The translations under genes and the position numbers were made by a program. This document shows positions 731-63,312 of a DNA stretch of 64,000 bases, piece by piece. The stretch's first letter is position 1. Each line of letters begins with the position of its first letter. Below the pieces are notes generated by a model. It worked only from the letters and a program-made list of their open reading frames with translations, was not told where the DNA came from and did no database searches. Source of the stretch: Seison nebaliae (taxonomy: Eukaryota); the NCBI GenBank assembly GCA_023231475.1, contig JALJEE010000343.1:1-64000 (forward strand). The letters run 5' to 3'.

Positions 731-2602
731 TTAACATTCCAATTGGAGTTTCTGATACGTATATAGTTTGTTGATAAAACTAATGATAGCTGTAGCGGGT
801 TGTTGTTCTTCATATTCGACAAAAAGCAAACATTCATTCTGCTTTTCTGTTTGCACAATTAACGAAAACAATTTGGCATCTTTCGATAATTGGTTGAATG
901 TTGACTTTGTATAATTATCTCCGATTTCTTCCGATATCACCGAACTTGATGATGATGGTGCCATCGACGACATTGTAACATCGATTAGTTCATTCCATGT
1001 GATCACGTTCTTGTCGGTTGATAAAGTTTTGGCTGTATTTCCTATCGTTAAATTGTTGAATAAGTCTTCAGTTTTCATACAAAGATTGTTGAAAATTACT
1101 TCGTTTAAGTTCCAATGAGTCTTCGTCAACATTCTACAATTAAACATAATTTATTTAAAGAATTTTTAAAGTGAACCTTTTATTTTCGTCGGTTAATGTT
1201 ATACCATTTAATGCTGCTTTAAAATGAACAACTGACGATTTGGCGAGTAAAGCATCTCCAGTCAATTCTTTATTTATCAGCGAATTATGTAACCGGAGTA
1301 CTTCGATAATCTTCTGGGAAATAGCTCGACCGATTGCATTAAAACCGTTCAGATTTCCCACGCCGAACGATCCAAGATAAACCACATGACATGCTAATGG
1401 ATAAATGAGAATTGTTTAGAATGATTATCTACTAACCAGCACCTTGATGCAATAAATTATAACTAATTGTTGATGATTTCATCTCGGCTTTTTTATTAAT
1501 TCCAATTTCACTCCCACTAGTATCAGTCAAATCAGGTATGACTAATTGACAAGGCAATGCCAAAGGCGTTTCAATATGTTTCAATACTAGACACGATAAA
1601 TTTTCTTCAAAATTTTATCGACGATGATTAATAATATTATGAAATAAAATTAACCGAAAATTGGTTCACTGGGACAACCTTTCAGACGAACACCTCCATT
1701 CTTCGATTCGATAAGAAAATGTCTGACAAATTCAATCGCCGGATCGACACCTTGTCTCATTTTAATGCCAGGTGGTAATTGGTTGACTTTCATTGCTAAT
1801 CCGAATGCTCCAGGGAATGAATTCGAATCTCGAATAATAAAATTTCCCGCCGCTTTATGTAACAATTGGTTGATTGCTATAAATATAATTTTTTAATATG
1901 AAAACCATTTCAATAAAGTACAAACCATTATCTCGTGAAATTTTTGGACGATACCAAATATGCTGTGTATTTTCAATTCTAGCTTCAATCGACAAATCAT
2001 CAATTCGTGTTTTCCTACTACTTACAGTGGAAGCTAATTATGATATTCATCAATGAATGATAGACAGTCAATTAAAAGAGAAACTAATTAAAAATTCTAA
2101 CCGACTCCAACTGATTCAGAGAGCAAGGTTTTTTGAACGTTCGTTGGTCCGTTCGTAATGATTCTGTTTAAGAGATGAAGTGATGATTCAAAATATGAGA
2201 AGTTGATACGAAAATGAAATTTAACTCGTTTTGTTGTTGAAATTTGTCATTCTTATCTTCAAATAATTTACAAAAATTAAATTAGTTTTTTGTGAATAAA
2301 TCAAAAAAGAAATAAATAAGAATCCTACCATAAACCGATAATCTTTTATTAAAATTATATTTAATTGAATCCTTATTACTTTGACGACGATGCTGATCAT
2401 TGAACGGATGACGGTTGGAAAAATTTTCTTTTTGACTACTATTGTCGCTACCAGAGCAACTTCTAAGCAGAGAATTATCCCGTTTAACGGATAGGCGATG
2501 TGGGGAAGGAATATTTAGAACAGTATCTTCCAATTCGAGAGAAACGGCTGCAATCTCTTTTTCGATACTATTGAGCAATTGCTCGAATTTATTGTTCATC
2601 AT
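731..2602 (-). CDS. TNS: Tensin family protein, C-terminal SH2 + PTB domains (multi-exon)
   Basis: The spliced product reads WYRPKISRDNA...GNFIIRDSNSFPGAFGLAMKV...VRHFLIE...VRLKGCPSEPIF (tensin SH2), then QGAACHVVYLGS...VHFKAALNGITLTD (tensin PTB). Introns 1134-1176, 1394-1436, 1605-1654, 1877-1925, 2034-2101 and 2164-2225 restore the frame. The exon starting at 2602 is a candidate first exon. Confidence 0.88.
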
Positions 2603-5148
2603 TTAGGAAACATTCAATGGTGTTATAAGAATTTTCCACACAATTTATCGAATTATTGCATTATTGATCTATCAATCGTGTTTAGTAGAAGAAGAGACAA
2701 GTAATGTGTGGATTAGCGCACTAAATTGAGCGTACCAAGATACAATTAGAAGAATGAGATAGAGGAAAGTAAATATAATTGTGTCATTTCGAAAGTTTTT
2801 CTCCGAAGGAGAACTGTCGCATGATTAAAGTAAATTGAAGGAGCTTTGACATGCATCAAGATAAAGTTGAGGAGAAAGAAGGAATAGTGGAAAAAGCTTA
2901 TCATCATTCGTAGAATATTGATGACATATGTGATAGATGAACTTGAAAAAGAGAAATTGAAGAAATCAGATGGCATTTGATTCATTTTTCCTAAGGATCT
3001 ATTCCTGCATTTTTTGCTGGAGCAAAAAGAAAAGGAAAACAGTGGGCTAGATTATGAATAGGTTTGAAGATGGAAAATCGTATTATTTTCTTTTCTCATT
3101 ATCAATATTACCTTAAGTAATAGAATTCGAATAGCTATCGGCATTCATGCAAAATATTCGAACGAATCCATGTTCCTTCTCTCCATTCTTTCAATGAATG
3201 CTCATCACACATTCTGTTTAGGTTGATTAATGAAGTTAGTTTGCAGTAACTTAATCCTAATTAGTCTACGATTATTTCATGTTATAAATCTTTCATCTTT
3301 CATGAATCATAAGATAAAATTCCTTTTCTTATTAACAAACTTCATCTCCCCAAAAATACATTTTCTTTATCAATTCTTTGATGTGTTGCTGATTCTCATC
3401 AATTATCGATTTCATTCAACCATTTACCTTTCTTGTTGTTGACGATAAAAATCCATCACTTACCTTTCCATATGTTCAGTTACAATTATTTAATGAAACT
3501 CGTTATTATTCTCATCATCATCGATCATTTGACTATATTCAATTAACACTATTATTGACCTATATTATATCCTCCGAATGATCCACTGAATTATCTAGTG
3601 CAATATTCGGAAAATGAAGAAAACGATGGTACGTAGAAGGTGTACGCAACACAAGTTTCTAACTAGCAACTGACTAGCAAATAATCGAGGTAGACTATTC
3701 GAATACCTAAGTGGATATATTTTTATTATTATTCGTATTATTACGCAGTAGAAATATATGATATCGATGAAATGTTTATTTGTTCATTTAAGTAGTTGCA
3801 ATATTTTAGAATTACTTTATTTCTTCATATAATTAGACATAATGTTCTTGTTCATCTGTTCATCCTCTATCATCAATACAACGTTAGGAGGAAGAGGTGG
3901 GAGAAATATATTGGTTTGTGAGGAAAAAGGTTAGAAGAACAATTCGATAATAATAATCGAATAGACATAAATATATCTTCACCACAATTATTGGAGAGAA
4001 TATGATTATTATGTAAAAGAAGAATAACACTATAAAATCTCAATATTGTAGTATTTTATTTTTCTAATGGAACATAATTTCATTTATCTCACAATTAATG
4101 TTCGTCAAGAACAGTCTCTCTAATCTAAAACCTGATCTTTTTTAAGAGTTATATAAATATTTGCATCATATCTTTTCGTACAATCACGTATATCCACCAT
4201 TATTTAACAGGAAACCGTTTTTTTTTTTAAAATCTCTCTACATAATATTGGGTGGGTGGGAAGGAAGAATTATAAATGATTATACCACAAACCACTGTCA
4301 TAATAACATCTGAGAGAATTGTCGAACACACATAACTTTCTTCACATTAACATTCCAACGTTAACAATTTCGATTGTGTTCACACTATCATCATATATCA
4401 TTTAGTTACTATGTTCGATAAATTACCATTCGTACAACTTCCTTCAAATTATTTTTGTAAGTTGACGGGAAGAGGTGGAACAAATAGAACTATTTTCAAC
4501 ACTACAGACAATTAGAGACAACAATTCGATTCAATTGCTTCTCAATATTTCCGTCTTCAATTATCAAACTCAAACGAGGACGGGTGAATGGATGATGATG
4601 ATGTTAACAGAATTCGTTTGTGAACTGTTACAAATTGAACAGACAAGATTCTTTCATTACTCTCAGACTGAGAGTCTCAGTTAGAGACAAGAATTGTTGA
4701 AATAAAAAAGTGAAATAACAAATTTATTTGTTCGATTAAATATTATGGGCATAAGAAATTTTAAGAAGTTCCACTTCAAACATTTCTCTTTTAAGAGAAT
4801 TAAGGAAATGAATAGTGTCGTGCATTTTCATGAAATTTACTGAATGCTAATTCTTGTTGATGGAAAAGAATGACAAGGCCATTAATTCTTTCTAGTGCCC
4901 CAATGAAAATTATTCTTTTCGTATCGGACTATAGAGAAATGATTAAGTAGATACTGCTTTGTTTCTCTTATTTTTTATGTTTTTAATGTTGAACATTTTT
5001 GTCCCTTATTCTTCTGATCGACAGTTACCGACATATATCGGCATATTATCGAATAATTCGATGAAGTTTAGTTAAAATTCTACGTGTTACTTATGATCAA
5101 CTATTGTGATTTATTTACTGATGGAAATTAGTTGAATTTAATGATAAC

Positions 5149-8100
5149 CTTCAATATGACAATTGTTTATCAGCTGGTGAGTTTCACATTGTTCTTTTGT
5201 TTTCATATGTTCCTTTTGTTGATCTTGTGCAATACGATGTATTTTGCTTTGTCTCGTTTTTATTATGTTATCCTCTTTCTCCATCAATTCATGTCCATTC
5301 TGGAAGATATTTATTAATTAAATTATTATGAATTAAATTAAGAAAAATTGAAAGAATAATAATGAATATAATAACTATATATGAAAGAAGTTAATGAAAA
5401 TGAAGAGAAGATTAACCAAATTTTTCGCATGTTCATTGGTGATGATGGTGCCATTAGTTGTGGCAGTTGTCTCTTTCATTTTTCTGCTTTTCAACGTATC
5501 GCTTTCGTCTTCTCTATTTGGTACGGTCTCCTTGACATATTCGGTTGACTCTCTCTCATGAGATTTCTTATCAACAATACTAAGACGTTCTTCCTCCATC
5601 AGTTTTTTTTCAGTTTCCTTCAAAAAACGTTTTCGGTTAGAATCGACTTGACCAGTTGGTCGATTGGATTGGAGGGTTTGAGCATTTGATGTAGATGATG
5701 AAGTATGGCTCATCATTTCTTGATATTGTTCCATAATTTCTTGTTTATTCTTCGAATAATCAAACGAAGCCTTTTCATCTTGGTTGACTGATCGATGGAC
5801 GTGATAGGCATCATTTAAATTTCTCTTTTTAAATTTTTTATCTTTTTCCGTATTGTACGTGACCTGTGCACCGTCGGTCGAGGCGAAAGCTTGTATGTGC
5901 AAATTGCCACCAGTTAATTCACTCTGCCGCTGTGAATAATTCGAATGCTCATCTAATGATTCCTGACAGGTTTTCATAATACATTTCGTATTAGAATCAT
6001 TATTCTCTCCATTCTTTATCAAGATGATATCGTTACATGGTCCTTGTACGATCACATCGCCATTGGGCAAATGTTTGAGGGTCATTCTTTCTGAACTGTT
6101 ATTGTTCTGCAATTGATCCTTTTCAAAAGTTCTCTTCAATTTCTCTTCAAAATTCTCATCCTTCAACAATGTCTGTTCATTTTGTCCATATTGTTGTCGT
6201 TGCCGTTGTTGTTGTTGCTGTTGTTGTTGTTGCTGTTGATGATCTTGATTATATTCATATCTTTGTCGATGCTCATCCGATTGTTGATGATGATAATATT
6301 GTTGTTGTTGTTGATGTTGATGAAATGGAGAAAGATTAGAAGAAATAGGAGAAATTTGACTCGTTCGTCTTTGTTCCTTTTGTTGATTATCATAATTTGA
6401 ATATTTTTGTTGTCTTTCACGTTCCTCTCGATATTCATAATTATAATTGAAATTCGGTGGTAATGATTGATCGTGTGTATGGACATTCATTGGTAATGTC
6501 CTATTTAAACTTTGTCCTCGATTCTGTCGACGCAATGTCGATGAAATGTAATTCTCTTGTAATTGTTTCTCCGTTTCACTCGGTCGACGATCCTGGGGAA
6601 ATGTCGACGATTCTAAACTGTATGCACGATTGTGTAAACCATTGACGTTATTCATAATCGTATGAGTACTCTCTCCTAAATTATCTCCGAAATTTGATAC
6701 GACTGTTAATGGTGCATTCTCAGTATCGTTTCCCACTGTAAAATCCGATGGCATACGACGATGCAACGAGGAGACTTGAGAGATGGGAGAGATTCCTTCA
6801 GAAATAGGTTGTCGAATTGTTGGTGAATTTAAAGGAATCGCTTCTAAACGAATGTTTCTGGATGAAGGTGGTGCTGTTCCCCGTCGAGATGATGTTATTG
6901 GTGCATGTTGTTGATATGAATATCGATCTTTATTTTGATGATTCATCATTGACGTGTATGGATTGGATTCTCGTCGATATTTCGATTTATCAACAATATC
7001 AAGTTGATTCATTCGATAATCACAAGATTGATGTCTAGGAAGATTAGTCTGACTCATTTGAGAGACACTATAACTGATATCATTCTCCTGTGGTTTCTGC
7101 AATTCACGATGATCTCTATTCGAATGATAACGATGACTATGACTATGTTTCCGTTGATGACAACAATGATGATGATGATGATGTCGATAACGTTGAGAAG
7201 TTCCACCACAATGTGAAGAACAATGATAAGAACAACAATTGGTTTGTGGAGGAACAAATAATTGTTGTTGTTGTTGTTGTTGATGGTGTATCGGTTGTGG
7301 ATGATAAATACATGGTGTCATTGGATAATAAATTGGTTGAAAATGTTCAAGTTGTTGGTCGTTGGCATATGAGGATGCTCTCAAACGACGAACATCTTTA
7401 ATTGTTTCTTTCTTCTCTTCAGTTCTAATCGGGTAATCGATCGGTCTAACTGATTGAGGTCGATTAACATAAACATGTTTCTCAGTGATTGACGATCTGG
7501 ATTTAGGAATATGATTAATCAAAGTGGATGATGTGTGATGTACTGGAGGTTTCGTTTTATCCGTTTCATATCGTCGATAAAAAGTCTCCGAATAATATTT
7601 TTTCTTTTCGACATTTTCATTTTGCTGTTGATGTTGCTGTTGATGTTGTTGTTGTTGTTGTTGATGATGTTGATGATTGTGAGTGGCCGAATATTGAGGT
7701 TGTTGGTGTTGATGTGTTCGCTTTATTTCTATTTGTGGTGGTGTATCTATGTCGATGCAACGGTTCTTATCGAACAAATGCTTCTCAAACGATTCCTCAT
7801 TTCTCATATGATTATGTTCTTGTTGGTGCATTGGTGAAGACTGATGGAAATTCTGTTCGATGATTTGCGTTTCAGACGGATGTTTCCGTTCGATGGAAGT
7901 AGTCACGTATTTCACGAGATTTCCATCAACCTTTTCCTCACTTTCCGTTACCGTATCTACTTCATGCAATAAATTTTCAAGGAGATTATCCAGTCGATTC
8001 AATTGAGATGTTGTCAATAATTTGTTTGATGTAGTTTGGGCACCGGAATCGTTCGATTTCTGAATTACAAATTGATTTTCATCGATAGTTTTCTTTGGAA

Positions 8101-11677: not shown

Positions 11678-12660
11678 TTATTGATTTAAACGTTTTTCTT
11701 CTCTCAAACGTCGTTTCTCTTGTCGTTCAAGACGTACGGTCGTTTTTGGTCCAAGAATAATTGGTCCCCATTTCTTTCGTTCATCTGGATCACGATCATT
11801 GAAATTCTTTCTTGCTAACGATTGTAGTGAAAGGAAAGTTTTTCGATCTTGTTCGAAACTGAATGATAATGAAAAACAAAAGTTGACTCTAAAAAGAATA
11901 AGAACTTGGAGTGGATGAATGCAAGAGTAGTGCATGTCTTCCGTCCAACCAAACTACCTAATAATGCTTTTCCTTTATGGATACAATAAGGAATATCCAT
12001 TTTTTGACATAATCCTGGTAAATGAAGAACAGTCTCAATCGGTTCAACATCATGAGCAATAACAACAAGAGTTGCCTTCTTTCTCATAATCATTTTAGTG
12101 ACTTCATTCACTCCAGAAACATATGCCTTCTTCTTCTTCAATTGAACAGCTTTCTGCTCTTTCTTCTCTAACTTCTTCATTTCTTTTCGACCATCAGCAG
12201 TTTTTCTCATTTCATTTCTCTCTTGTTGTCCGATCGATTTCGATTTCGCTTCTTCTAACAATCGAGATTTTCGATGGATTTTCGATTCACCATAATGTCT
12301 CTTGATGAATTCGGTAAGGGTTTTCGCGTCTTGTTTCTCCATAGCCGTCTGAAATTGAAAGATACTTGGTGGTGTCTTCAATCGTTTCATGATAATTCGC
12401 TTCTTTCGTTGGAGACGGACGTATGTCGGCCATCGAACGAAATGTGTTAAATCTCGTTTTGGTTGGATCGACTGTCCGATACCAAAATTCACCTTCTTCC
12501 TATGGAATAACTTTTCCATCGGATTTTTCGTCTTCTCCACCTTCTTCTTCTTTGCCTTGTCGGGCATAGCAGCCACCTTTCTATTCGATCTTCCCGGATT
12601 CACCTATCGGAGACATATTGACAAATAAATGGAAAAAAAGATACAGAAGATACAAACCAT
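11678..12660 (-). CDS. RPL7A: 60S ribosomal protein L7a (eL8), divergent
   Basis: NFGIGQSIQPKRDLTHFVRWP, LVVIAHDVEPIE, MDIPYCIHKGKALLG and C-terminal NFNDR...KWG. ATG-only first exon 12658-12660; introns 12604-12657 and 11859-11905. Confidence 0.92.
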
Positions 12661-12884: not shown

Positions 12885-15297
12885 ATGAATTTGCAAATTC
12901 TCCCTTGTTTTAAGGATCGGAAATTACTCCGGGAGCAATACTGTCGAGATTGCTCCCTCAAATGGGGTAGTACCGAAGAAGATGAATATTCGTGTCGCTT
13001 CCAATTCTTCCGCATCTGCTTCATCGCCAAGAAAGATAAGAAACGACATTTCTTTTTTCGAACAGCCAAACAAATTCCAGAAAACATTTATTCCAATTTA
13101 ATTAAAGAAAATTTCGCAAGTCCATCAATCTCTTTAGCGCGACAACGTTCATTGGAAGAGAATTTTTATATTTTAATAATGATTAAAGATTTCTTCTATT
13201 CACTCGTTATGAATGAATTTCGAGTTTCTTCCTTCACTTACGATGGTTCTCTTGTTAACGAACTGGATACAAATCAAAAAATGTTCACAGAACATTTATT
13301 GGAATTGAGAACAGAAGATGATTCGAATTATATTCGAAAGAAAATGAGTTTAATTCGCGAAGTTCTACAAACTAATTTAGCCGTCACTTCCTCTTATTGG
13401 AAAGGTAATCATTCGTCTGATATTCGTGAATTATGTGACGTTTGTTGTTCCTCCATTTTCAATCTTCATTTCTTTTGTGGTAATTGTGGCTTGGCCGTTT
13501 GTTGTCAATGTTATGAAATGAAATTAAAATTTAATCGATGGCCAGGCACATTAGGAAGTGGAGTTGATACTTATAATTGGCCTTATTGTATTTTGACACA
13601 ACTCTCACATGACGTTAATGATGTTCATCGAACTTTTCTTTTCTCGCCAATGGAAATGATTCTACTTCTCAAAAATCTTCAATCTATTTTACCTCAATTG
13701 AAAGTTGAAAATTTTTCCTCTAACAAATTAACGTTAGTCAATGACGAATTGTTACCTAGTTCCTGGATATATCTTCCACAATTTCAACTTTTATCTTCTG
13801 ATAATAATTACATCGAAAATTCTTATCATAACGACAGAATTGAACGAATCTCAAAATTAATCAATTCCGTCACTCATATCAGTGACGATATCAGTTATTG
13901 GAATGGGAAGAATGTTCTAATTTACAAGAATGCAAAATCTGCTTTTCCTCAATCATTTAACGATCCGAATTATAAATTATTCCGGTCACATTGGTCGAAC
14001 GGTTTGCCCATCATCGTTCGAGAGTTGAATGATTCCAATAAATTTATCGATCTCTCACTTTGGTCAAGTGATCATTTGAAGAAGAAAGTTCGAAGACGAA
14101 AAGTTCCCTTAATCGATTGTTCGCAGGCCGAACATCATGTGGTGATTAAATCAACCGATTTCTTCTGGAATCATTTCAATTCGTACGGAAATTTCTTCGA
14201 TGTGAAAAAACCAATTTATAAACTCAAAGATTGGCCGACTAGTGATGATATTCTGAATTATTTGCCGGAAAATGTTCATAATTTCTTTCAATATTCTCCG
14301 TTCGCTGATTATTCGTCACGATTCGGAAATTTGAATCTTATTCGTTCGTTGGACGAAGATGATGTGGACGAATTAGATAAAGAAATGCAAAAAGAAATAT
14401 CTCGAACATTTAGAGTGGATTTGGGACCGAAATTATATGTGGCAACTTCATCTTTTTTCCAATGGAATAATGGTTCCACTGTTCTCCATTTAGATGTGTC
14501 TGATGCATGCAATGTCATGTTGAGTGTAAAAAGAGCACCGCCATTCATCCATAAACATCTCGTCGCTTATTCACTTCAATGTATAAAGAATGATTTAGAA
14601 CAATTGAAAAGTTTGAGGAAAAATTTGAGAAATATTGGTGCTCTTTGGCATATTTTCAAACCGAAAGACGCTCACAGAATTCGTCATTATCTCATAAGAC
14701 AAAAATTGAAATATGAACAATTGTTGAAAAGGAAAGGACAGAAACGAAATTCAACTAAACGAAAATGTCTAATAAACTTACAAGAAAGTGAACGGATTTC
14801 TCTTGATAATTTCCCGGAAGATTGGCAAAAACAATTATTGTTGACGAAACATCAACCAGGTGATGATCCGATTCATGATCAAAATATTTATTTAAATGAT
14901 ACTATGCTCATGGAATTGGAGAGAGATTATCATGTTCATGCTATCCCAATTATTCAATGTGTTGGTGATGCAATTTTTATTCCAGCAGGTGCTCCTCATC
15001 AAGTGAAGAATTTGGTTAATTGTGTGAAAGTGGCTGAAGATTTTCTCTCTTGTGAATTATTAGGGAATTGTTTGAAATTATCTCAAGAATTCCGATTCCT
15101 TTCATCTAACCATTTGAATCATCTCGATAAAATGGAAGTTAATTTTTTCTTATTAATTTTCATCATCTTTTCCTTTTTAGTTATTCTCATCGATTTATAA
15201 GAGTGTCAAATCATCCGTTTCGTCAATAATGAGAAATAATGGAAGGAAAGAAAACAACAATAATAAGAAAGAATCATTAAATATGTCAAAAGAATAA
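12885..15297 (+). CDS. KDM3: KDM3/JMJD1-family JmjC histone demethylase
   Basis: Zinc finger ELCDVC..IFNLHFFCGNCGLAVCCQCY; LKDWP; DLGPKLY; HLDVSDA (HxD); GALWHIF; DPIHDQ; FIPAGAPHQV. Final intron 15138-15180; last exon LFSSIYKSVK... ends at 15297. Confidence 0.92.
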
Positions 15298-15379
15298 TTT
15301 TATGATTCGATTCGATAATTTGCTGGAGTATTTTTCATTTTCTCCCATCAACATTTAGTTCGATAGTTTAACTTGTATA

Positions 15380-15813: not shown

Positions 15814-18567
15814 ATGCCAATTCTATTAAATTCTCCTATTCATGAACGTTCCAATGAGGATGAGGATGATGAGAAATATTCGAAAGATAGCGGTCAAGAA
15901 TCGAATGAATGGCGAGTTGGTCGTACTGATTTTGGTGCTTATGGTTCTATGGATTCACAAGAATTCCGTCGTCGTGGAAAAGAAATGATTGATTTCATCG
16001 CTGACTATTTGAGAGATATCGGGTTTAATTTCACTTTTATTGAAATGATAATGAAATATTGAATGAAATAAAGTGAACGACGAGTTTTACCTGATGTGGA
16101 ACCGGGTTATATGAAAGAGATGATGCCATTGACAGCACCATTTCATTCTGAACCATGGGATAATGTATTGAAAGATATTAACAACATAATCATGCCAGGA
16201 GTTGATTTTTATTTAAATTTAATTATAATTATTATTATTTTTTCCTTTTAGTTAACACATTGGCAACATCCACGATTCCATGCTTATTTTCCAGCAGGTA
16301 ACACATTTCCTTCAATTTTGGGAGATTTGTTACAAGCAGGCTTAGGTGTCAATGGATTCTCTTGGGCGAGTAGTCCAGCTATTACTGAATTAGAAACGAT
16401 AATGATGCAATGGCTCGGTAGTGCTATCGGATTACCATCAAGTTTTTTACCGTTCCCAAAAAATGAACGTCATCGTACAATGAGACCAAAAGATTCTCAA
16501 TCATCTCTTGCTTCATTATTGAATGAGACTGACACAGAATCGAGTGTATCAACTGATTCGGAATCTGTGAACAATTCTTCATTATCATCATCTTGTTTCG
16601 AAAAAGATGATATATTGAAGAAAAAGAATGAAACATTTATAGAGAATAAGCAAACGATGAAAGAAGATGTGAACAATAAGAGAAACTCAAAAAATAATCA
16701 TGGAGGTGGTGGTGGTGTAATTTTAGGATCAGCGAGTGAATGTATTCTCATCGCAATGATCACCGCACGACATAATCTTCTATTAGATATGGCATCACGT
16801 GTGGAGAATGATGAGAAGTATCTGCAAAGATTACAGAGAAATAGTCGTCGATGTCAAACACCGTCATCTTTACCACCAATGTCTGATGATATTATTAAGA
16901 AGAAAATCAATCCAGTTGTATCGGAATTAGTCGAACAGAAATTGTCTTCGTTAGTCGCTTATACATCGTTATATGCACATTCGTGCGTAGAAAAAGCGGC
17001 AATGATTTGTCGAGTGAAAATTAGACAATTAAATGTAGGTCTTGATTATAGTTTGGATGGGCAGACGTTGAGGAAACAAATTCAATTAGATCGTCGGAAT
17101 GGAATGATACCATTCTTCATCAGTGCTACTTTGGGTACCACTACGTGTTGTTCGTTCGACGATTTAATTTCCATTGGAGAAGTTAGTGAGAATGAACGTC
17201 TTTGGTTACACGTAGATGCAGCATATGCTGGTTCGGCTTTTATTTGTCCCGAATATCGTTATCTAATGAGGGGAATTGAAAGAGCACAATCATTCAACAT
17301 GAATCCGAACAAGTGGCTACTTTGTAATTTCGATATATCTTGTATTTGGGTGAGGAATCATTACTCGTTGACATCCGCATTGTCTGTAGATCCGATTTAT
17401 TTACGTCACGAACAAACACATAAAGTAATCGATCTCCGACATTGGGGAATTGCTCTATCTCGCCGATTTCGTTCATTAAAATTATGGTTCGTATTTCGAA
17501 CTTACGGAATAAATGGATTACGTCGCTACATTCGAGAACATGTGAGATTAGCTCGACTCTTCGCACAACAGTTGAGGAAAGATCAACGATTTTATATCGT
17601 TGCACCTGTAAAATTAGGTTTAGTCTGTTTCCGTTTCCATGACAACAATGAGAAATCTCAACAATTATTATTTCGATTGAATGACTCGGCATTACTTCAT
17701 ATGATACCAGCAATGATAGATGATGGGAAATATATGATTCGTTTTTGTGTATGTGCTCCAAATGCTGTCGATAGTGATATCGATTTTGCAGTGAATGTTA
17801 TTCGACAAATTGGCGATCAATTAGATGCTGAAGATCGAATGATGATTGATGAGAAATTGAAATTTAATAATAATTTAAATGAATCAAAAAAACAACAACA
17901 ACAACAACAACAACATCAAGAGGAGGAGGTTGGATATAAGAAGAGAACGATAACGAATAGTAATAGAAAGAAAGGATATCTTGTTCGAATGATTAGTGAT
18001 CCGAAATATCCAAATGAGAATTATAATCGTTCGACTGACAATACAATCGATGAGAATGAGCAATTGGAAGATGGTCAGATGACAAACCAAACGGAGAATG
18101 TTAATCGAAGATTTAAATCATTCTCCTTCAATCATCGAAAGAAGAATGGTTACACATGTAGTCATTGTCAAAAGAAGTTCGATATTCGAAAAAAATTCGA
18201 TATTAAATCAAACGAGACAAATCAACAAGAATTGAAACAATCGTCACAATATATGATTTTAAAAGATGAAAAACCACCATATGAAAGATTAATATCATCT
18301 CCAACTACTACATCCTTCACAACAACAACAACGATAACAAATCAATCAAATATTATTGATTCAAATCCATCAATTCCACCAACTACTCATCCCTTATCTT
18401 CTGTTCATGTGTCGCCCATGGTAACAACGACAACAATTTCTAATTCATCAATTACTCCTACCAATAATGCGACAGGACAAAATGTGAATTTAAATAAGAG
18501 TAAAAAGAAGAGTAAGAAGGGAAGTTATCTTTCGAGAAAAACGTCGATCATTATGTCAAATGAATAA
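15814..18567 (+). CDS. Tdc: PLP-dependent aromatic amino acid decarboxylase, tyrosine-decarboxylase type
   Basis: MDSQEFRRRGKEMIDFIADY, THWQHPRFHAYFPAG, WLHVDAAYAG, NMNPNKW (the NPNK PLP-lysine variant typical of Tdc rather than the NPHK of DDC), RHWGIALSRRFRSLKLWFV. Introns 16023-16073 and 16201-16251. Confidence 0.88.
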
Positions 18568-18661: not shown

Positions 18662-20222
18662 TTACATTTCTTCCAACTGTTTCTTCAACTCTAACAAACT
18701 CATTTCATTTTCTTCATTCACTTTCGGTTCGTCAATTGTGTTTTCTTCTTTCGTCATTCGATTATCATCGTTATTTGTCCCCAAATCATATTTCAGATAG
18801 ATGCCATCAGCAATTTGATTAGTTTCCGTTTTATCTTTCGTTGACTCGTCTACCAATTCGATATGATATTCATTCGTTTCATGAATAATGGTATCATTTC
18901 CATTATCTCCATTATTTCCATTATCATCATCTTTCTTCATTTCATTTATTCGATTAAACTTCTCTTTCTGTCTCTCTCGGCAATGACTATTTGGACATTC
19001 TTTATTTGGTAATAGAACCATTTCTGGAAAGAAATCCTTCAATCCATTATAGCCAATGTAGCCTCTTTTCATCTCCAATTTCATTAGATATTTCATTGCC
19101 GCTTGTACCAACAATCCTGCGACAATTCCGATCGTAGTCGGTAATGAAGCAGCACAAACACCTTCTCGTTTCAAACTTTTTTCATCTTCATTTGCTGCCA
19201 CAATTAATGGTGGACTACATTCGAAACATGCAGTAATTCCAACCTCCATAAATTGGATATGACCATTCATCGCATTTTCACTCACACCTGATTCCAACCA
19301 TATTATATCACATTCGTTACAAGCCTGAAAGATATCGATTATTTAATCAATATTAATAATCATAAGAACTTGATTGATTGAGATTCTTGCTTCAAAATTA
19401 TCGACACATCCAAGTACCAGATCGATTTCTGATTTTCCATCTTTACCTCCAATCCTATCCAATTCTCTCAATTAGTCTCTATAAAATAATTAAATAAAAA
19501 TTTAACTTTAAATCAGTAAGTAATTGATTGAAATCTGTAATATTCGTTACATTGATATGTCGTCCAATTAATTCGACATCGGGATTCACTGTACTATAAA
19601 ACATGTTCATAAAAATTCCAATTTATCAGAAGAAAAACACAAATTTAACTTCAATGTTTGAATAGCAGCGTCCACTTTACTCATTCCGATTTGAGAGGGA
19701 ATAAAGAACATTCGATTCATATTAGCCATTTCCACTTTATCATAATCATATAATATCAACTGAATTAATAAATTAAATAAATTAGTTTATAATTCATCTT
19801 CTTAAATTCTCCAACTTTTCCAATTCCACATCGAGTTAACATTTCAGCGGCAACACTGCCGACTCCTCCCACTCCGACGATGAGAACGGAATAATTTCTG
19901 ATATTCTTTTTCATCATCAATTATAATGTTCGATTGAAAAATAAAGGAAACTTGATAATTTTTTACAATGCCCATTCGCTCCAATGCTACTAGTCGACTG
20001 TAGAGAATGAAGAAATGTAAATGATTTGACGGAGAAGTGGAACCTGTAAGGATTACTATCGATCACTTCACCGGTAATATCCATTTTGTTTCTCTTCGGT
20101 TTCTCTTCATTCTTCTTCTGAATACATTTATTTTTGATGTTCTGTACAGTTTGTTCGATTTTCCCGATCTCATTCTCCAACGGTTTGAAAATTGCATCAC
20201 ATTGATCTTTCATTGATGTCAT
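18662..20222 (-). CDS. UBA5: UFM1-activating enzyme UBA5 (7 exons)
   Basis: [78 protein letters not shown]. Introns 19998-20043, 19906-19951, 19760-19815, 19594-19649, 19455-19506, 19325-19369. Confidence 0.95.
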
Positions 20223-20452: not shown

Positions 20453-20867
20453 ATGGATTTATCCTTAAGCAAGACGAAATTTATCGCTCTAATTAGTGAC
20501 GAAGTTGATCTTATTGAATTGTTATTGAAAAAATGTAAAATGATTTTTTAAGGATTCAGTTACAGGATTTTTATTGGGCGGAATAGGAAATTTAAGTAGA
20601 GATGGTTCCACCAATTTTTTAGTCGTTAATTCAACAACGACGAATAAAGAAATCGAAGAGAAATTTTGTTCGTTTCTCAATCGGAAAGACATCGCAATTA
20701 TTCTCATCACACAATCAATCGCTGAACGGATTCGTGTTCTAGTCGATAATCATACGGATCCAATTCCAGCCATTTTAGAAATTCCATCAAAAGAGGCACC
20801 TTATGACCCTCAAAAGGATTCTATACTTCGACGTGCACAAACCATTTTTGGTAGTGATGGAATTTAA
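20453..20867 (+). CDS. ATP6V1F: V-type ATPase subunit F
   Basis: IALISDE|DSVTGFLLGGIG...RKDIAIILITQ...PAILEIPSKEAPYDPQKDSILRRA. Intron 20504-20552. Confidence 0.95.
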
Positions 20868-21015: not shown

Positions 21016-21536
21016 TTATCTGCAAATGAAAAATTATTATTAAGAATAAAATGAGAATACTAAACTGAACACTTGGTGCGTGTGAGGCAATTCTGGGCCA
21101 TAGATTAGCACATTCTTTCGCCACCGGTCCAGTGATGGCGGAACCTTTCATTTCTCCTTTGTTATTCACTATCACACCAGCATTATCTTCAAAATAAATG
21201 ATGGAGCCATCCTTCCTCCTCAGAGGACGTCGTTGTCTTATAACCACAGCTGGATGAATCTTTTTTCTTAATTCTGGTTTTCCTTTTTTTACCGATGCCA
21301 CCACCATATCACCAACACAAGCGGCTGGTAATCGATTTAATCTGGCTCCCCATCCATGAACGGCGATGATATACAAATTTTTCGCTCCCGTATTGTCCGC
21401 ACAATTGATGATAGCGGCAACGGGTAAACCGAGAGAAATTCGGAATTTGGCTCCTCCTGCTCCTCCTCGTCCTATCCATCCAATAAAAAGTTATTAATAA
21501 ATGGAAGTATAAAAAAGATACAAAACTTTTAGACAT
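21016..21536 (-). CDS. RPL23: 60S ribosomal protein L23 (uL14), 139 aa
   Basis: [20 protein letters not shown]...[12 protein letters not shown]...[10 protein letters not shown]...[29 protein letters not shown]. Introns 21472-21526 and 21020-21065; the last coding exon is A+TAA. Confidence 0.96.
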
Positions 21537-23965: not shown

Positions 23966-24000
<35 letters not shown>

Positions 24001-30413: not shown

Positions 30414-32273
30414 TAAAAATCAAAAAACAAAGTTTAACAACATCTCAATAAGAATGAAATGATAAAACTTATAAGTATGTAATCTCCTCACCAAATTTGG
30501 GATGACGATATGAAGTCATTTTGTCTCCCCCAAACATTTTGAGGAGATGATATTTATTAGTCGATTATTAAATAGTTTTCTTCTTTTTAACCACCCCCCT
30601 CAAAACAAATCTTTAACCATTTTAACTCGATTCTTTTTTAACAATAACTTTCTTCGAACAGCTTCATATATCAATATTTTGATCGACCAACTTATTGATT
30701 TATTTATCAAGTCAATAATCTAAGAATTTTACGAAACAATTTTTCGAATTTATTCTTTCCTTTCGCGAATTATTGGAATGTACGTAACTTCCACCGGTTT
30801 CAATTATATCTTTCTGAGAGCTTTCTTCCTTTTTCGAAAAAAATTATATTTGAGTAACCGAAATTTTATTTTCTTAATTAACGATAAGAATTCGTCCAAC
30901 ACTTATTATCTTTTTACATTTTTCTTTTCCGTTAACATTCTGTGGTTTTCAATAGAAATTATTTATTGAATGTATCCGTAAATTTTCCAGACCTGCACTC
31001 GCATATACCAAATATCGTTTATTTATCATCATGTGCACATCACCGATAGTCTCTTCAACTATCTTCTTTTTCTCTTTCAAATAAATTATACAACAATAAT
31101 AGAGACAACTTCCAAGTGCATTAATTCTCTCCGTTCGTCATTTGCCGTTCCCTTCATTTCCGTCAAAAGTATAATTTCCTGATATCTAAACAAAGAGCAG
31201 TTGGAATGATATTCGACACAAATGATGTGGTTGGTGGTGACTAAGGGAGAAAGTAACAAGGTGGAACTGATGTACGAAAGATCTGACTGTCCTCCCAACA
31301 TTTTTACAAAACACTGATAATTGTAACGATAATAAGGAGAACATCAACAGAGGAGATTGTGCAGTTATCATCATAGGAATAACAAGAATAATGTTATTAG
31401 ACTCAATGAGATGTTCATCTCCTTTCTACATTGTGAACTCAATGCGTTACATCTACAACCGGATGGCATATACTGTAGTAGTTGTTGTATTAGAACAAAT
31501 ACGAAGAAGGAAAACATTCGAAGAATTGTACGGTGCCGATGAAAACTGATGAATAAAAGACATTAAAACGTTACATGTACATGTAGATTATTTCGTAAAC
31601 CGAATAATTATATAATGAATAGATGGATAGACAATTATTTTCATTTATTTGTTGTGCAACTAATTTTGTGAAGGATTGCGCACTCCTCAATATATGAGAG
31701 CAGAAGATTATGATGAATATAATTTGGAGAAGAAAGTTTTCATCTGATAATCATTTTTAATGGAGAGACTGAAAACGGTAGAAAGTGCCTACAAGCATTT
31801 ATTAGAGAAATAGAGATAAGTTGCCAGTTCGCAAATCGACGTTACCTATAACGGTATTATGCCGCGTCTTCCCTTCAATCATTCGCTACTTACCTGCCGC
31901 TGAAAATTTTAAAAAAGAAACATGAAGTCCCCATTCTCCACCCCTCAACTACTGCATCTTCTTTATTTCCATGTTGCTTAATTAGGTTTTCTTCCTACGT
32001 TCCTTTTCCTTCCTCTGATGTGGTAGATACAAATGTAAGTTATTTGAGGGAAGGACATATCGATTATTGCAGACGGAAGATTAAACCTATACGGCACTAC
32101 AGATGATTAATGGAGAAAAGAAGAAGGAAAATTGATGAATACATTACACATTTAAATAACTAATGAATTAGACATTCTTAACCGGACAAGAAACATACGA
32201 GAAACATAATTCTGAAATCAAATAATCAATCAATATCATAACAACAACATTTCACTTCTAATCTGGTGGTCAA

Positions 32274-47256: not shown

Positions 47257-48766
<1,510 letters not shown>

Positions 48767-50074: not shown

Positions 50075-51599
50075 ATGAAAATCATCTTTTCTTTCATTTA
50101 TTTTCTTCTCCTATCACAGGTCGCACAATGTCGACAACGATTATTAGTCTTTGCCATGGATGGATTTAGTTGCCAATATTTAGAAAGAAAAGATTTGATA
50201 CCGAATATTTTGAAATTTTTCAGTAAATCTCTCAAAGCAAAATGTATGAAACCATCTTTTGCAACGAAAACATTCCCAAATTTCTGGTCAATGTCCACGG
50301 GTATTCTTTTATTTAATTAACTCTACTTCAACTAAAATTCAATTAAAAGGAACCTATGAGGAAACTCATGGAATTTTAGCGAATCGTTTCGTTGATCTTA
50401 AGAAGAATGCTGTGGTCAATGTTAAAACGACAAACGAAACAAAACATTATTTCTCCCAAACTCCCATGTGGGAATTGGCTGTCCAAAATGTTCTTCCTTT
50501 TTTTTTGAATTTTTGATGAGAAAATAATAAAATTTTTCAGAATAAGAAAGTTGGATCTATGAATTGGCCTGTATCGTTTGTGCCGAGGAAAGCTCAGACT
50601 CCCGACGCAAATGCTCCTCAAATTATGCAATTTAGTTATATGGGTCACTTGGACCGTGAGAGACAAGTATATCACGTTGCTCGTTGGTTCAATGATCTGG
50701 ATGTGGATTTAGGTTTGTTGTATATGAATGAACCAGATCGAACTGGTCATCAATATGGTGCACATCATCCACAAATGAATATAACAGTTTATTGTTTGTT
50801 TTCAAGAAGAATTTCATTCATTTTGTTGTGTAGTTGAAGAAAATGGATAAATTATTTAAGACGATTGTGTCATTATTGAGAAATCATGAAAATAGTAAAG
50901 ATGTTAATATCGTTCTCTTATCAGATCATGGAATGCAAGATTTGAAAGCTGAAAATCATATTCATATCGATAATTATGTATCGTTGAACGATATCAGTTT
51001 TTACGATGATGTAAGTATGGGTGTAATGTTGCACATTCATCCAAAAGAAGGAAAAGTTATTTTTTTCATTTGATTACTGAAAAAATAATTTTTATTATTA
51101 TATAATTAAATTTCAGATGGATAAAGTTTGGAATGATTTGCAGAAATTGAAGAAATATGCAAAAATTTTCAAGAAAGATTCAATTCCTGAACATTATCAT
51201 TATAAGGATAACAAAAACGCCCCACCCATTCTCGTCAATATGAAACAAGGTTACAGTATGGGAAGGAAGACGGTGGCACAAGAAGATTTCGGTGGGCATG
51301 GATACAGTAATGAGATGGATACGATGCAAGCAATTTTTATGGCTGACGGTCCCGCCTTCCAAACGGGCAGTGTAGATAAATTTGAGAATGTCAACATTTT
51401 CGGTATCATTCTCAAATTGTTAGGGGTGACGCCTTCGCCAAATAATGGGACTGAAAAAATTTGGAAGAAAGTTCTAACAAAAGATGCGTACGAGAATAAT
51501 GATGCAATTCAAACACCACTATCGGTCAACCTATTGATTCTTTTTTCATCCTTCCATTTATTATTCAGTTGTAACTTTATCAATTTATCATTGTTATGA
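50075..51599 (+). CDS. Ectonucleotide pyrophosphatase/phosphodiesterase (ENPP4/5/6/7-like) with a signal peptide and hydrophobic C-terminus
   Basis: LLVFAMDGF, TKTFPN (catalytic Thr), EETHGILAN, EPDRTGHQYG, LLSDHGM, GGHGY, FMADGPAF, PSPNNGT. Introns 50301-50349, 50490-50540, 50787-50833, 51056-51116. Confidence 0.88.
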
Positions 51600-52422: not shown

Positions 52423-53247
<825 letters not shown>

Positions 53248-55942: not shown

Positions 55943-56245
55943 ATCCTTCTCGTTGTATATGTTTTCTTCAACCTCCATAAAGAATGATTTGAAGAGAATA
56001 GAATGCTCACGAGAAAGAAGCGAAGACGAAAAGTGTCAAAAGTTCATTAAAATTCAATTGGAAAGAATCGAGTTATAAACGAACGTGTTACCATATTAAC
56101 AAACCTTTAGAATAGACGCTACTTTAATCGTCTAATTGATGAAGTGAGAGAGAGAGAAAGAGAGAGAAAAAAAAGAAAGAAATTGACAGTGTTTGCAACT
56201 CGTTTTGTTTAATTTAACGACACCGTTCCATCGTCGAATGGAAAG

Positions 56246-59200: not shown

Positions 59201-60864
59201 TCGTTAATCGCTGACATTGTACAGAATGAAACAAATGTTATTAATAACAAAAATTCTGTTTTCCCACAAAATCATTTGTCGACTGGTCATGAAGTGAATG
59301 AATCGGAACTCATCAATAATTTACCTGCTGCTAATATTCGATTGAATTCTGCTATGGATAAAATTGATGTAAATATTTTTGGTTGTGATAATAATTGTTC
59401 GATGACACATAATCTTTTCACTTTCCCTTCAGCCATCAATAACACTCAATTGATTGATGAAACATCAGATATCCAACAATTAATCCAATCATTAAGAATC
59501 CATTTAATCACTTCAATTCGCTCTCATAAACAACGATTAATGAGAGATTTTCGATTCGTTAAAGATCTGATGGATATGATCGAACATATCCGTCAAATCA
59601 TCACCGTCAAATTACCTCAAACGTCGTCGACTGAGAAATTCTTCACGAAAAATTTCTCACCATCATCTAACCGTCGTCAATTGGATAAACAATCGACGAA
59701 TAATAATCGAATTTCTTATGGTTCCGATAACCTGCAAAAGACATCCATTCGTCTCAAATCGCCATTCACTAAGAACATCTCTCCATATCATTTGAGAATC
59801 ATAAAGAAGAAAGAGAAATCGGTGAAAAATGAAGATAATCACGATCATCAAAACAGTACAAGTTTGCAGGATTTGCCTCTACAAACCGTCGAAGATACAT
59901 CAGGAATTAATTTGAATAAACCATTCAAAATGAATGATGTTCTCATTCCTGAATTAAGTTTCAATTTCTTCTCAATTCAATTTCTATTTTTTTCTTTCAG
60001 ACAATTCGATGAATTTCACTCAAACAAAATCCGAAGGAAAATCCAGATCTTTCCATACCATCACTGAGAAAAGCGATCCAACATTCAACGTTCTAGTCTC
60101 TAACATCAATTTGAATGGTAATTCGAAATCCGGATCCTCCCATAGTATTCTCTCAGGTTTTTTTATGTTTTTAAATTTTAATTATAAATTTTAATTTTTT
60201 AATTTTTTAATTTTAATTTTATATTGGAAATTCAGGAAGTTCCACAGGAAACGTCAACAAGATAGTGACACGTCTTCAGTTGAAATTGCAGAAATTGAAA
60301 CAAAGAAATTGGAAATCACTTCAAATAATTCCACAAACGATAACTCTTCAAGAGAATGAGGAATCAAATGGAAATAAAACGGAAACGAATGAAAAAGACA
60401 AAGATTATTTGGATATTTATGATAACATTCTCAGTCTCTATTACCAATATCTTTATCTCATCATTCACGACACCGTCCTCTCCTCCACCAAATTCACAAC
60501 GAATCGAACTCTCAATCTCCTCCACAAATTCTTCTCCATCACATCGTCGACAGATGAGAAATCGAATAATAAAATCAGAAATTTATTAATTAAACGAATT
60601 CAATCGCCAATGTCACAACTCGTTTTATCGAAAGAATTCAATTTCATAGAAATCATTTCGAAATCATTCAACGACGAAGTTTTCTTCTTTCATTCAAATT
60701 TTTCTCATTTTTTCTATTTTCAGATTTCTCGCTTCAACAAATACGAATCCATCCTCATGGAATATATCCAATATTTGGAACATGTAAAAAAATCATCAGA
60801 CGGTTCTTTGTCGGTGGATGGTGAACATAACATTATTTTGGATAAGATTCTTTCTCTCTTATAA
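56246..60864 (+). CDS. PSD/EFA6-like protein: PDZ + degenerate Sec7 + PH + C-terminal coiled coil
   Basis: PDZ: FGFSVFGG...LKEGDIILSING. Sec7-like: NSFTQLVAQRF...LRKVFRHF...HLFGCYLLSLNLEL...YESLVSERIEF. EFA6-type PH: LQRKCIATINEQPISKLRRQWKNF. C-terminal ISRFNKYESIL. Introns 59958-60000, 60157-60235, 60679-60723. Confidence 0.7.
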
Positions 60865-61147: not shown

Positions 61148-63312
61148 ATGCAACGTAAATTAGTGAACGGGGAATTATCTTTCCGCTTCAAAATAGAAAG
61201 TGAGCCTAATCTCCTCATTACTCATACGGCTGATGACGTTTCCAATCTGGATTATCAGAATAAATGGGTAAGTGATTTGGATGATTTCTTCAAAATTACC
61301 ATTTTCACTTTATTACCCATTTTTGCTATCATCCCCACCAATCCAAAATGTAAATTGCCTGACACCACTCCAACAATCGACGTTATCATTCAAGTACAAC
61401 GTGCTAAAATCTATCCTATCGATCGAAGTTTTCACTTTTCTCTCATTCGAATTTCTATTCAGAATTTCTTTAGCATTGAGACGAATTGAAAAGAATATGA
61501 GAACTGTCGATCTTTATTTAACAACATTAACTGATGATTGCGCGGAAGATTTGGAGGTTCAATCTGAAATATTTCCATTTTAATAATTTAATTATTTTCA
61601 ACTTTTAATCTCTCAAAATTATTCCGGTTCGATTTTATTGTTAATAGGATCGTTATTGTGCTAAAAGAATTAGTTCATATTATAACAAACAAAATTGTAA
61701 GCAAATTGTTATGAGACTGGACAATAATTCTATCGATACCACACGACTAAAAAGTGAATTCTTCCGTAAAATACAATTATGTCCTTTAATGAAGTTCATT
61801 AAATCCAATCAGAAATTAATTCAGTTACAAATAATTTAGAACAGATATGAGAAAACCCAAATTCCACAAACGAACACTTCGAAGACCAGTTAAAGCGCGA
61901 CTCTTCAATTATCTCCTCAAATTCCTTCATATGTTATTCAAGAAGCCAGTTGTGAATTTTGATGAGCAGACGGTTTTAGGAGTAGAGTTTAGAAAACGAA
62001 TTCGAACGGTATTAATTGGAGAATTACCCGATTTTTTAGGGTCCCAAATAAACCGTTTAAAACATGGTAATATAAAAAAATGTAAAGTTCGTTCATTAAA
62101 AATGACATGTATCGATGCTGATGATTTAAGAAATATGGCTGGTGAATGGGCAGTCTTCTTAAAAGAAAGAACAGATGACGTTTTCCGCATCTGTTCCAAA
62201 GGAAAAATTATTCCGACTAAAAAAATGTCGTTGGACAAACAATATAATTGGGTAGAAATTAGTGTGAATAATTTGAATAAACAATATCTGGGAAACGAAA
62301 TAATTATTAAACGAGTTGACATCCATTATTTCGAACCGAGATTAATGCACCAATGGGTAGATAGTCATGTAGAAGTTGCTGAGCTCAGTTACCGCAACAT
62401 TCTCGAAATTGATGTTTATCTCGAAAATTTCTTCAAAGAAGAAATGGATATCGCTCTCAAATTTCAATGTCGTAATTTTCCTTTTCGAAAAGAACAATTC
62501 ACCACTCTATCTCATCAAGGAACGAAAAAATTCATTTTAATTATATCTCATCCACATATGAAGAAGGATCGGAAACTGAAGAAACTTAAGGAAATAATTT
62601 GTCAAAGTTTTATTCAAATTTATTACTTAAATTTATTATTATTTAATAATTTAATTAATTTAATTCTTCCAGTTACAGTGATGGAACATCATAGAAGAAA
62701 TATGATTTCTTTTCGAAATATTCGTCTTCCTGTAGAATTGCTTACATTGACATCAGCCATCCCAAAACTATGTACTTGTCAATATTTCTGTAGTTGTATT
62801 GTTCATTTTAATATTTTTTTCCTTAATCTTAATTCAAATCTTATTAGTGTGCAGTGGATAAATTGACATTCTTTACTGGAAGTTTCCGATTAAAACCAAC
62901 AGCAACTGATGATGAACATTCGTTGAGACAACGTCTAAATGATGCGAAAAAGAAATCATTGGAATTAATAGCTGATGATAGAAAAAATCATATCTGTAAC
63001 ATTACCGCCGTCCATATTATGGATGCGACGGAATTGATTTCGAGCGGTATGAAGAAATATATAAAAGAATCGATTCGTGGATTAGAAGTAGAACATTCGT
63101 CTCATCCATTACTCAACGATTTAACACAACTCGTTGTTGATAGTAATTATACAGGAATAATTAAACGAAGTATTATGAAAAATAATAAATATTTTATTAC
63201 CGTTCTCAACATGATTTACATCGTTCCTATGATACTTTTCGCGTTTGGAATGCAGAAAGCCGTTTGTGGATTCTTTTGGCCGTCAATTCTCCATTTGGGA
63301 ATTAGAAGTTAA
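61148..63312 (+). CDS. Hypothetical multi-exon protein with a C-terminal TM segment
   Basis: The ORFs at 61148, 61272, 61847 and 62854 join in frame through GTT..AG introns 61428-61473, 61557-61647, 61794-61839, about 62607-62672 and about 62793-62854. No recognisable family. Confidence 0.6.

Follow-up and report, generated by a model that had tools for sequence, protein, structure and literature searches.

Nearly all introns in a 64-kb window of the Seison nebaliae genome begin with GTT

Introduction

Typical animal introns begin GTA or GTG, and few features of animal splicing are more stable than the U1 pairing sequence and the purine at intron position +3. The only genome-wide case of U at +3 that we found in print is that of Entamoeba, where U1 has changed from ACUUAC to ACAAAC while the U6 ACAGA box is unchanged (bioRxiv 10.1101/2022.06.08.495308, Roy and Bowser; here and below, published work is cited for the accessible parts of each source). 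Known transformations of the 5′ splice site (donor) fall mostly in intron-poor lineages with strict signals, in which there are few sites to change (bioRxiv 10.1101/2022.06.08.495308). Here we describe the donors of a 64,000-nucleotide (nt) stretch of DNA (contig JALJEE010000343.1, positions 1 to 64,000; hereafter the window) from Seison nebaliae, a tiny marine, epizoic member of Seisonidea, which lies inside Syndermata, the group of rotifers and acanthocephalans (PMC8351084). The tyrosine decarboxylase (Tdc) and ENPP reading frames of the window match public proteins labelled Seison nebaliae at 100% identity. In this AT-rich, gene-dense window 38 of 40 introns begin GTT.

Results

Introns in the window begin with GTT

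Junctions were taken from assembled transcripts mapped to the published Seison assembly (supplementary file 2 of PMC8351084, at least 19,906 rows), and introns defined in this way were chosen independently of any motif. At least 65 rows concern the contig, of which 26 lie past base 64,000 and were dropped, 19 contain no gap of 30 nt or more and one repeats the introns of another. The 19 rows used define at least 27 separate gaps of this size, which document removal of the introns from messenger RNA. All 27 have GT-AG ends, possible in each case at a single slide position; 26 begin GTT and one begins GTAGGA. The exon and intron lengths of the UBA5-like gene, as read from the window, equal one row of the transcript table exactly. 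Of the sequencing runs listed for the species none is marked as RNA, and four runs aligned to 9000–28900 revealed no spliced joints; two of the four left nothing aligned and the one first taken for RNA is probably DNA. Thirteen further introns, outside the transcript table and listed by an initial annotation made from the sequence alone, were set by reading frame and homology; 12 begin GTT and one begins GTATTC. Six of these 13 match public protein annotation, two in Tdc, where the model spliced at both introns is identical to P0001 (883/883 amino acids), and four in ENPP, where P0122 maps across all four junctions. The other seven depend in part on comparison with homologues and are less secure.

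The initial annotation had reported GTT at 30 of 31 introns. When all 31 were rebuilt this count was reproduced exactly, as were the hand counts among the 30 GTT donors (G at +5 in 5, T at +6 in 20, A as the last exon base in 19 and G in 9). Eighteen of the 31 junctions coincide to the base with published transcript gaps and six more match annotated proteins. The rule also held in a test set of nine transcript-supported introns that the initial annotation did not include, eight of which begin GTT.

Over the 40 introns the base at +3 is T in 38 and A in two, with no G or C, compared with a T frequency of 0.49 in intron interiors (p 5e-10). The transcript set alone gives the same picture (26/27 against an intronic T of 0.50; p 2e-7). 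Among unused sense-strand GT sites near the junctions, GTT accounts for 49 of 156, a marked difference from the real donors (Fisher p 5e-14). All donor statistics refer to this one window, in which the shift to GTT is confirmed. Because 38 of 40 introns begin GTT, it is likely that the splicing machinery of Seison reads intron starts differently from that of usual animals.

The donor signal is a purine followed by GTT

The exon end also carries information (a slash marks the exon–intron boundary). The last exon base is A in 23 introns, G in 15 and another base in two, so that 38/40 have a purine at −1, with an excess of G (p 0.001), and A is enriched at −2 (24/40; p 0.001). The proposal of A-rich exon ends is therefore borne out, while the narrower claim that the last exon base is A gives way to a purine. 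Purine/GTT is found in 36/40 introns and AA/GTT is the commonest form (17/40); both GTA exceptions carry G at −1. Beyond +3 there is little constraint. Position +4 is A in 14, T in 11, C in 10 and G in 5, T falling below background (p 0.004). G at +5 is enriched (8/40 against a background of 6.5%; p 0.004), yet still a minority, and 22/40 donors have neither G at −1 nor G at +5. T at +6, part of the A/GTTnnT code put forward originally, shows no excess over background (22/40, p 0.29; 12/27 in the transcript set) and occurs in only 2/9 held-out introns; for this reason the signal is purine/GTT and not A/GTTnnT. Purine/GTT is also present at 23/49 unused GTT sites nearby. Pairing scores in the canonical register distinguish true donors from GTT sites left unused (p 1e-6), and that register is still visible in the biases towards A at −2, G at −1 and G at +5.

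The donors lie outside the metazoan consensus, as had been claimed: GURAG occurs in 0/40 and AG/GU in 5/40. In humans the GURAG class holds 53.6% of donors and the AG/GU class 45.1%, and 98.7% fit one of the two (PMC11732430); the corresponding classes in C. elegans hold 44% and 32% (PMC11347140). Compared with an Entamoeba-type donor, U at +3 is general (38/40) but the strict hexamer GUUUGU is present in 2/40.

The intron body and the 3′ splice site

All 40 introns have GT-AG ends. The median length is 49.5 nt and most introns fall in a narrow range of ∼41–80 nt. Downstream of the donor, positions +8 to +14 form a T-rich tract (T 0.65 against 0.54 in the best shuffled window; permutation p 0.0005, n=39 introns, window choice allowed for). 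No polypyrimidine enrichment was detected at positions −13 to −4 of the 3′ end, where the pyrimidine fraction is 0.59 against 0.61 in shuffles, and four simple branch-like words near the 3′ end were not enriched over shuffles (p 0.1–0.5). The pyrimidine-rich part thus lies at the 5′ rather than the 3′ end of the intron, and some 3′ ends are purine-rich (19906–19951, 31066–31109). The acceptor is AAG in 10/40 introns, which, with the composition of the 3′ end, hints that reading by U2AF is altered as well.

U12-type introns are characterized by an RTATCCT donor and a CCTTRAY branch point. An assignment to this class was rejected, both motifs being found in 0/40 introns. A mobile family of the introner type was likewise rejected: no stretch of more than 13 nt is shared among the 40 introns, and one intron position is common to insect-like loci.

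The first introns of RPL7A and RPL23 share a 12-nt word at the donor that starts TTTGTATCTT (12646–12657 and 21511–21524, minus strand), and the 10-mer TTTGTATCTT has one more copy in the window, on the opposite strand. This shared word is possibly a common regulatory element.

Comparison with insect-like loci and a second Seison lineage

As a control, metagenomes were scanned with a bdelloid Tdc alignment, which yielded 80 loci. Five were inspected, two of them insect-like loci with introns (L003 and L005) and three without visible introns; the other loci match at ∼40% in one piece. The intron control is small: it took in L003 and L005 only and yielded no intron from a rotifer or an acanthocephalan. 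In both loci an intron that starts GTGAGT or GTAAAA lies at the same place as the Seison Tdc intron after the IMPG codon. Position +3 is a purine in the one homology-fixed donor of L003 and in the first five of L005. As the position of this intron is common to insect-like loci with a purine at +3, at least one ancestral donor was converted in place.

Two lineages have been reported within Seison nebaliae (PMC8351084). In the region 19250–21560, low-depth contigs from four DNA runs (80% likeness) are ∼85–87% identical to the window in exons, and point to the second lineage being present in the same runs. Among the rows listed, these contigs align 3–8 bases into five of the nine introns of the region and then stop or jump, and at the donor at 19506 their bases beyond +3 differ from the window. 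These alignment ends give a weak hint that GTT may be kept while the rest of the intron drifts. One UBA5-like intron of the second lineage is ∼96 nt long, against 56 nt in the window.

Spliceosome components

The presence of spliceosomal proteins was taken from the rows listed in a published BUSCO table (PMC12256650). Of the 25 syndermatans covered, Seison is the only one for which METTL16, a protein for which a change had been suggested, is scored as missing; both acanthocephalans have it. Loss of SNRNP27K or PRP8, for which a change had likewise been suggested, finds no support, as both are listed complete, together with PRP6, PRP3, PRP31, PRP38B, SF3B1, SF3A3, ZMAT2 and Sm proteins. The complete entries cover core proteins of U2, U5 and the tri-snRNP. 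The table scores SNRNP40, SPF45, ZMAT5 and ZCRB1 as missing, and the rows listed include none for LUC7 or a U1 protein.

An intronless 347-amino acid RRM protein is encoded at 43854–44894 (minus strand). Its best matches among solved structures are RBM40/RNPC3 (U11/U12-65K) and RBM41 (E 1.6e-6), the atlas lead is U1A-like with a high score, and a sequence homolog search returned only the protein itself. Because ZMAT5 and ZCRB1, both of the minor spliceosome, are listed missing, the RRM protein may be a remnant of that machinery or repurposed.

Gene setting and intron coordinates

Domains detected in the genes of the window include SH2, JmjC, ThiF, 7tm_1 and Phosphodiest, among others. The analysis gives domains only; the SH2, JmjC and ThiF genes, and two others, are those that we take to be tensin, KDM3, UBA5, RNF121 and Fezf. 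A domain search of the RNF121-like and Fezf-like fragments gave no match. Intron density is very uneven, genes interrupted every 50–300 nt adjoining very long intronless open frames of 650–1650 codons (5378–8386, 21750–24059, 36111–41063, 45186–47144 and 56213–60064). The introns are collected in Table 1. Those at 19906–19951, 21020–21065 and 47480–47550 (minus strand) are retained in one assembled isoform and spliced out in another. In the SH2-domain gene, two sets of upstream exons (2257–2670 and 5149–8950, minus strand) share one acceptor, and the short form of the gene carries the only transcript-supported non-GTT donor, GTAGGA.

Table 1. Introns of the window, with donor (last two exon bases/first six intron bases), length, coordinates, strand and the evidence that fixes each junction.
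Intron	Donor	Length (nt)	Position	Strand	Evidence and remarks
SH2-domain (tensin-like)	AG/GTTCAC	43	1134..1176	-	transcript gap
SH2-domain (tensin-like)	TG/GTTAGT	43	1394..1436	-	transcript gap
SH2-domain (tensin-like)	CG/GTTAAT	50	1605..1654	-	transcript gap
SH2-domain (tensin-like)	TG/GTTTGT	49	1877..1925	-	transcript gap
SH2-domain (tensin-like)	CG/GTTAGA	68	2034..2101	-	transcript gap; outside initial set
SH2-domain (tensin-like)	GA/GTTAAA	62	2164..2225	-	transcript gap; outside initial set
SH2 gene, short isoform	TG/GTAGGA	72	2257..2328	-	transcript gap; non-GTT
SH2 gene, long isoform	AG/GTTATC	2892	2257..5148	-	transcript gap
	TG/GTTAAT	117	5300..5416	-	transcript gap
RPL7A intron 2	AA/GTTCTT	47	11859..11905	-	transcript gap
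RPL7A intron 1	TG/GTTTGT	54	12604..12657	-	transcript gap
JmjC (KDM3-like)	AA/GTTAAT	43	15138..15180	+	frame-keeping GT-AG candidate; 64-nt acceptor alternative, no donor alternative
Tdc intron 1	GG/GTTTAA	51	16023..16073	+	spliced model = P0001
Tdc intron 2	GA/GTTGAT	51	16201..16251	+	spliced model = P0001; position common to L003, L005
UBA5-like (ThiF) intron 6	AA/GTTCTT	45	19325..19369	-	transcript gap
UBA5-like intron 5	AA/GTTAAA	52	19455..19506	-	transcript gap
UBA5-like intron 4	AA/GTTAAA	56	19594..19649	-	transcript gap
UBA5-like intron 3	AA/GTTGGA	56	19760..19815	-	transcript gap
UBA5-like intron 2	AA/GTTTCC	46	19906..19951	-	transcript gap; AAG acceptor; one isoform retains intron
UBA5-like intron 1	AG/GTTCCA	46	19998..20043	-	transcript gap
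ATP6V1F	AA/GTTGAT	49	20504..20552	+	homology and frame; exact junction from human sequence; other frame-keeping candidates exist
RPL23 last intron	CA/GTTTAG	46	21020..21065	-	transcript gap
RPL23 intron 1	AA/GTTTTG	55	21472..21526	-	transcript gap
Unidentified transcript	AA/GTTGTC	44	31066..31109	-	transcript gap; AAG acceptor; outside initial set
G-protein-coupled receptor	AA/GTTATT	48	41064..41111	-	7tm_1 halves flank intron; frame
RNF121-like intron 5	AC/GTTCGT	71	47480..47550	-	transcript gap; one isoform retains intron
RNF121-like intron 4	GA/GTTAAT	49	47967..48015	-	transcript gap
RNF121-like intron 3	AG/GTTCAT	51	48124..48174	-	transcript gap
RNF121-like intron 2	AA/GTTCAT	43	48451..48493	-	transcript gap
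RNF121-like intron 1	GA/GTTAGA	54	48680..48733	-	transcript gap; held-out set
ENPP intron 1	GG/GTATTC	49	50301..50349	+	P0122 mapping; second non-GTT donor
ENPP intron 2	AT/GTTCTT	51	50490..50540	+	P0122 mapping
ENPP intron 3	CA/GTTTAT	47	50787..50833	+	P0122 mapping
ENPP intron 4	AA/GTTATT	61	51056..51116	+	P0122 mapping
Fezf-like zinc finger	AA/GTTCTT	45	52576..52620	+	C2H2 register kept (as judged)
Fezf-like	AA/GTTTTT	64	52693..52756	+	C2H2 register kept
Fezf-like	CG/GTTCCT	41	52864..52904	+	C2H2 register kept; alternative in-frame donor 52855 also GTT
Fezf-like	AA/GTTACA	48	53027..53074	+	C2H2 register kept
3′ end of PDZ-domain gene	AA/GTTTCA	43	59958..60000	+	transcript gap; outside initial set
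	AG/GTTTTT	79	60157..60235	+	transcript gap; outside initial set

Discussion

The mechanism that we favour, while stopping just short of calling it probable, is that GTT introns are cut by the major spliceosome with a predicted U1 carrying A opposite +3 and a predicted U6 that lacks N6-methyladenosine (m6A). Without m6A on U6, A at +4 and G at +5 would count for less in the donor and recognition would move to the exon end, in parallel with what is seen when METTL16 is mutated in worms, plants and fission yeast. As loss of U6 m6A alone leaves +3 unfixed, a partner base would be needed that selects U at this position. The simplest candidate is a change of the pseudouridine at U1 position 6 to A; donor and U1 would then pair without interruption in a short helix spanning −2 to +3. 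Since purine/GTT holds too little information, being present at almost half of the unused GTT sites, the remainder would come from the U-rich tract just inside the intron and from the restricted intron size. The compensated U1 is placed first because Entamoeba has the matching U1 change with a standard U6 box, and because a Watson–Crick A accounts for the exclusive use of U more readily than a wobble G, as the latter should accept C too. The free +4, the weak +5 G and the A- and purine-rich exon ends all fit loss of U6 m6A. When METTL16 is lost, use shifts from GURAG to donors read through the exon, worm examples being AA//GUUGU and UG//GUUG (PMC11347140), and where SNRNP27K is retained +4 can stay mixed (PMC10581693). 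A bolder version, which we hold only tentatively, would make Seison the first animal with a re-coded intron start, in which a rewritten U1 reads purine/GUU, U6 m6A was lost with METTL16 and thousands of GURAG donors turned to GUU in an intron-rich genome.

Several observations weigh against a compensated U1 combined with an unmethylated U6. Loss of METTL16 predicts U at +4 (PMC10581693), where T is depleted here (11/40, p 0.004). Most lineages whose donors changed kept their U1, including 69/69 Saccharomycotina candidates, Thecamonas and Mamiellales (bioRxiv 10.1101/2022.06.08.495308), and in the tunicate Fritillaria, the sole animal precedent, the U1 5′ end is strictly conserved (bioRxiv 10.1101/2025.08.15.670264). 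The edited U1 gives a higher pairing score, but the argument is circular because the edit was drawn from these same donors. The ‘Missing' call for METTL16 is weak, since 356/954 BUSCO genes are scored as missing in Seison, including 76 that the acanthocephalan Neoechinorhynchus has (PMC12256650), and fast-evolving genes can be overlooked. An Rfam search, which covered the 64-kb window only, returned no RNA gene and no U1, U5 or U6. The second lineage has a GTGAGT word starting 4 nt into the intron at 19506, which could be a canonical donor there. Finally, no GTN stood out with a clear peak when GTN-to-YAG spacing was tested blind across the window, a test judged underpowered because ∼40 true introns stand among 2344 GTT words.

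A close rival to the compensated U1, which we nevertheless consider unlikely, is that a standard U1 tolerates the mismatch at +3 and U is selected at the U6 step, by U-G wobble with the unmethylated G of ACAGA or by a changed base in the box. ACAGA can pair with +2 to +6 of GUUUGU, and U1 is standard in Thecamonas and Mamiellales despite their changed donors (bioRxiv 10.1101/2022.06.08.495308) and invariant in 227 Saccharomycotina candidates (PMC10581693); in Fritillaria the donors have changed while U1 has stayed the same and U6 m6A has been lost (bioRxiv 10.1101/2025.08.15.670264), and METTL16 is listed missing in Seison (PMC12256650). Under such a mechanism, however, +5 G, +4 U and +6 U should all be strong, whereas these are observed in 8, 11 and 22 of 40 donors, with +4 T below background, and a G opposite +3 should accept C, which occurs there in 0/40. 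GUU could instead be read largely by protein with little small nuclear RNA (snRNA) pairing, through a diverged U1C, LUC7 or PRP8 together with a factor of the TIA-1/Nam8 type on the U-rich tract, a class of protein that binds U-rich tracts. The tract at +8 to +14 and the scarcity of information past +3 agree with this proposal, as do the strong divergence of U1C in Entamoeba and the role of TIA-1/Nam8 at non-consensus donors (bioRxiv 10.1101/2022.06.08.495308) and the listing of SNRNP40 and SPF45 as missing (PMC12256650). We regard it as improbable: the BUSCO rows listed include none for LUC7 or a U1 protein, PRP8 is listed complete (PMC12256650), and the residual biases at −2, −1 and +5 fit snRNA pairing.

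Pairing of a standard U1 in the register shifted by +1, known from atypical human sites with A at −1 and U at +3, would account for A/GTT, with AA/GTT the commonest form. That register depends on G at +6, which pairs with C4 of U1, binding being lost in a +6 C control (PMC4856993), while in Seison +6 G is at background (2/40), GTTRRG is found in 0/40 and C occupies −2 in 5/40. Scores in the shifted register do not tell true donors apart from GTT sites left unused (p 0.063), although canonical scores do, and the possibility, very improbable in our judgement, is largely refuted in this sample. More ordinary still would be relaxed selection at +3 in T-rich introns, copies of a mobile element that starts GTT, or annotation artefacts, to which we gave almost no credence. 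The introns are 49% T, GTT makes up 2344/5677 of the GTN words in the window and the blind spacing test lacks a clear peak. Yet T rises to 95% at +3 while it is depleted at +4; the 40 introns have no common sequence beyond AT-rich words of 12–13 nt; one Tdc intron occupies the same codon in insect-like loci with a GTGAGT or GTAAAA start; and the junctions derive from transcripts, not from choice of a motif. For the window, this group of explanations is refuted.

An intron-rich animal in which U is fixed at +3 and almost nothing is fixed at +4 to +6 would constitute a natural experiment on which component reads +3, and on whether U6 m6A can be lost, through METTL16, before the donor code is rewritten. 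At a practical level, gene finders trained on GURAG may mis-score the Seison genome. In the literature searched, with most subscription papers outside its coverage, we found no report of Seison splice sites or of this donor pattern in another animal, and in the passages searched of PMC8351084, PMC10125929, PMC12256650, PMC7310846, PMC10639083, PMC11347168, PMC10599564 and bioRxiv 10.64898/2026.06.08.730799 nothing on it came up. As far as this search extends, the GTT shift is new for an animal with GT-AG introns. The description of an undescribed system in the initial annotation was too broad, as GUU donors with a co-evolved U1 are known in Entamoeba (bioRxiv 10.1101/2022.06.08.495308) and Fritillaria shows genome-wide splice-site change with loss of U6 m6A (bioRxiv 10.1101/2025.08.15.670264).

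Seison and Entamoeba have in common near-universal U at +3, GT-AG ends and short AT-rich introns. Entamoeba is intron-poor, its donor is a strict 6–7 nt (88–90% GUUUGU) and the branch point of E. invadens is fixed, whereas Seison is an animal with several introns per gene, in which GTTTGT accounts for 2/40 donors, +4 to +6 are nearly free, the exon end carries a signal, no branch motif was found among the four words tried and the U1 change is predicted. Fritillaria borealis is likewise an animal with changed splice signals, genome-wide in its case and in one window in Seison, where use of the major spliceosome is predicted. Loss of U6 m6A, reported for Fritillaria, is in Seison a prediction. 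Of the introns of Fritillaria 95% lack GT-AG ends; the animal has a duplicated U2AF, retains METTL16 and shows no change at the U1 5′ end (bioRxiv 10.1101/2025.08.15.670264); in contrast, Seison keeps GT-AG in 40/40 and METTL16 is listed missing. Human donors read in the +1 shifted register resemble those of Seison in A at −1 and a pyrimidine at +3, but are rare and need G at +6 (PMC4856993), which occurs in 2/40 Seison donors, where GTT is near-universal. With the donor classes linked to METTL16 and SNRNP27K, Seison shares the lost preference for A at +4 and the weight placed on the exon end without U6 m6A (PMC11732430, PMC10581693, PMC11347140). The shifts linked to these proteins act at +4 and favour U there, while in Seison U is fixed at +3 and depleted at +4, and 35/40 of its donors lie outside both classes, compared with 98.7% of human donors inside one (PMC11732430).

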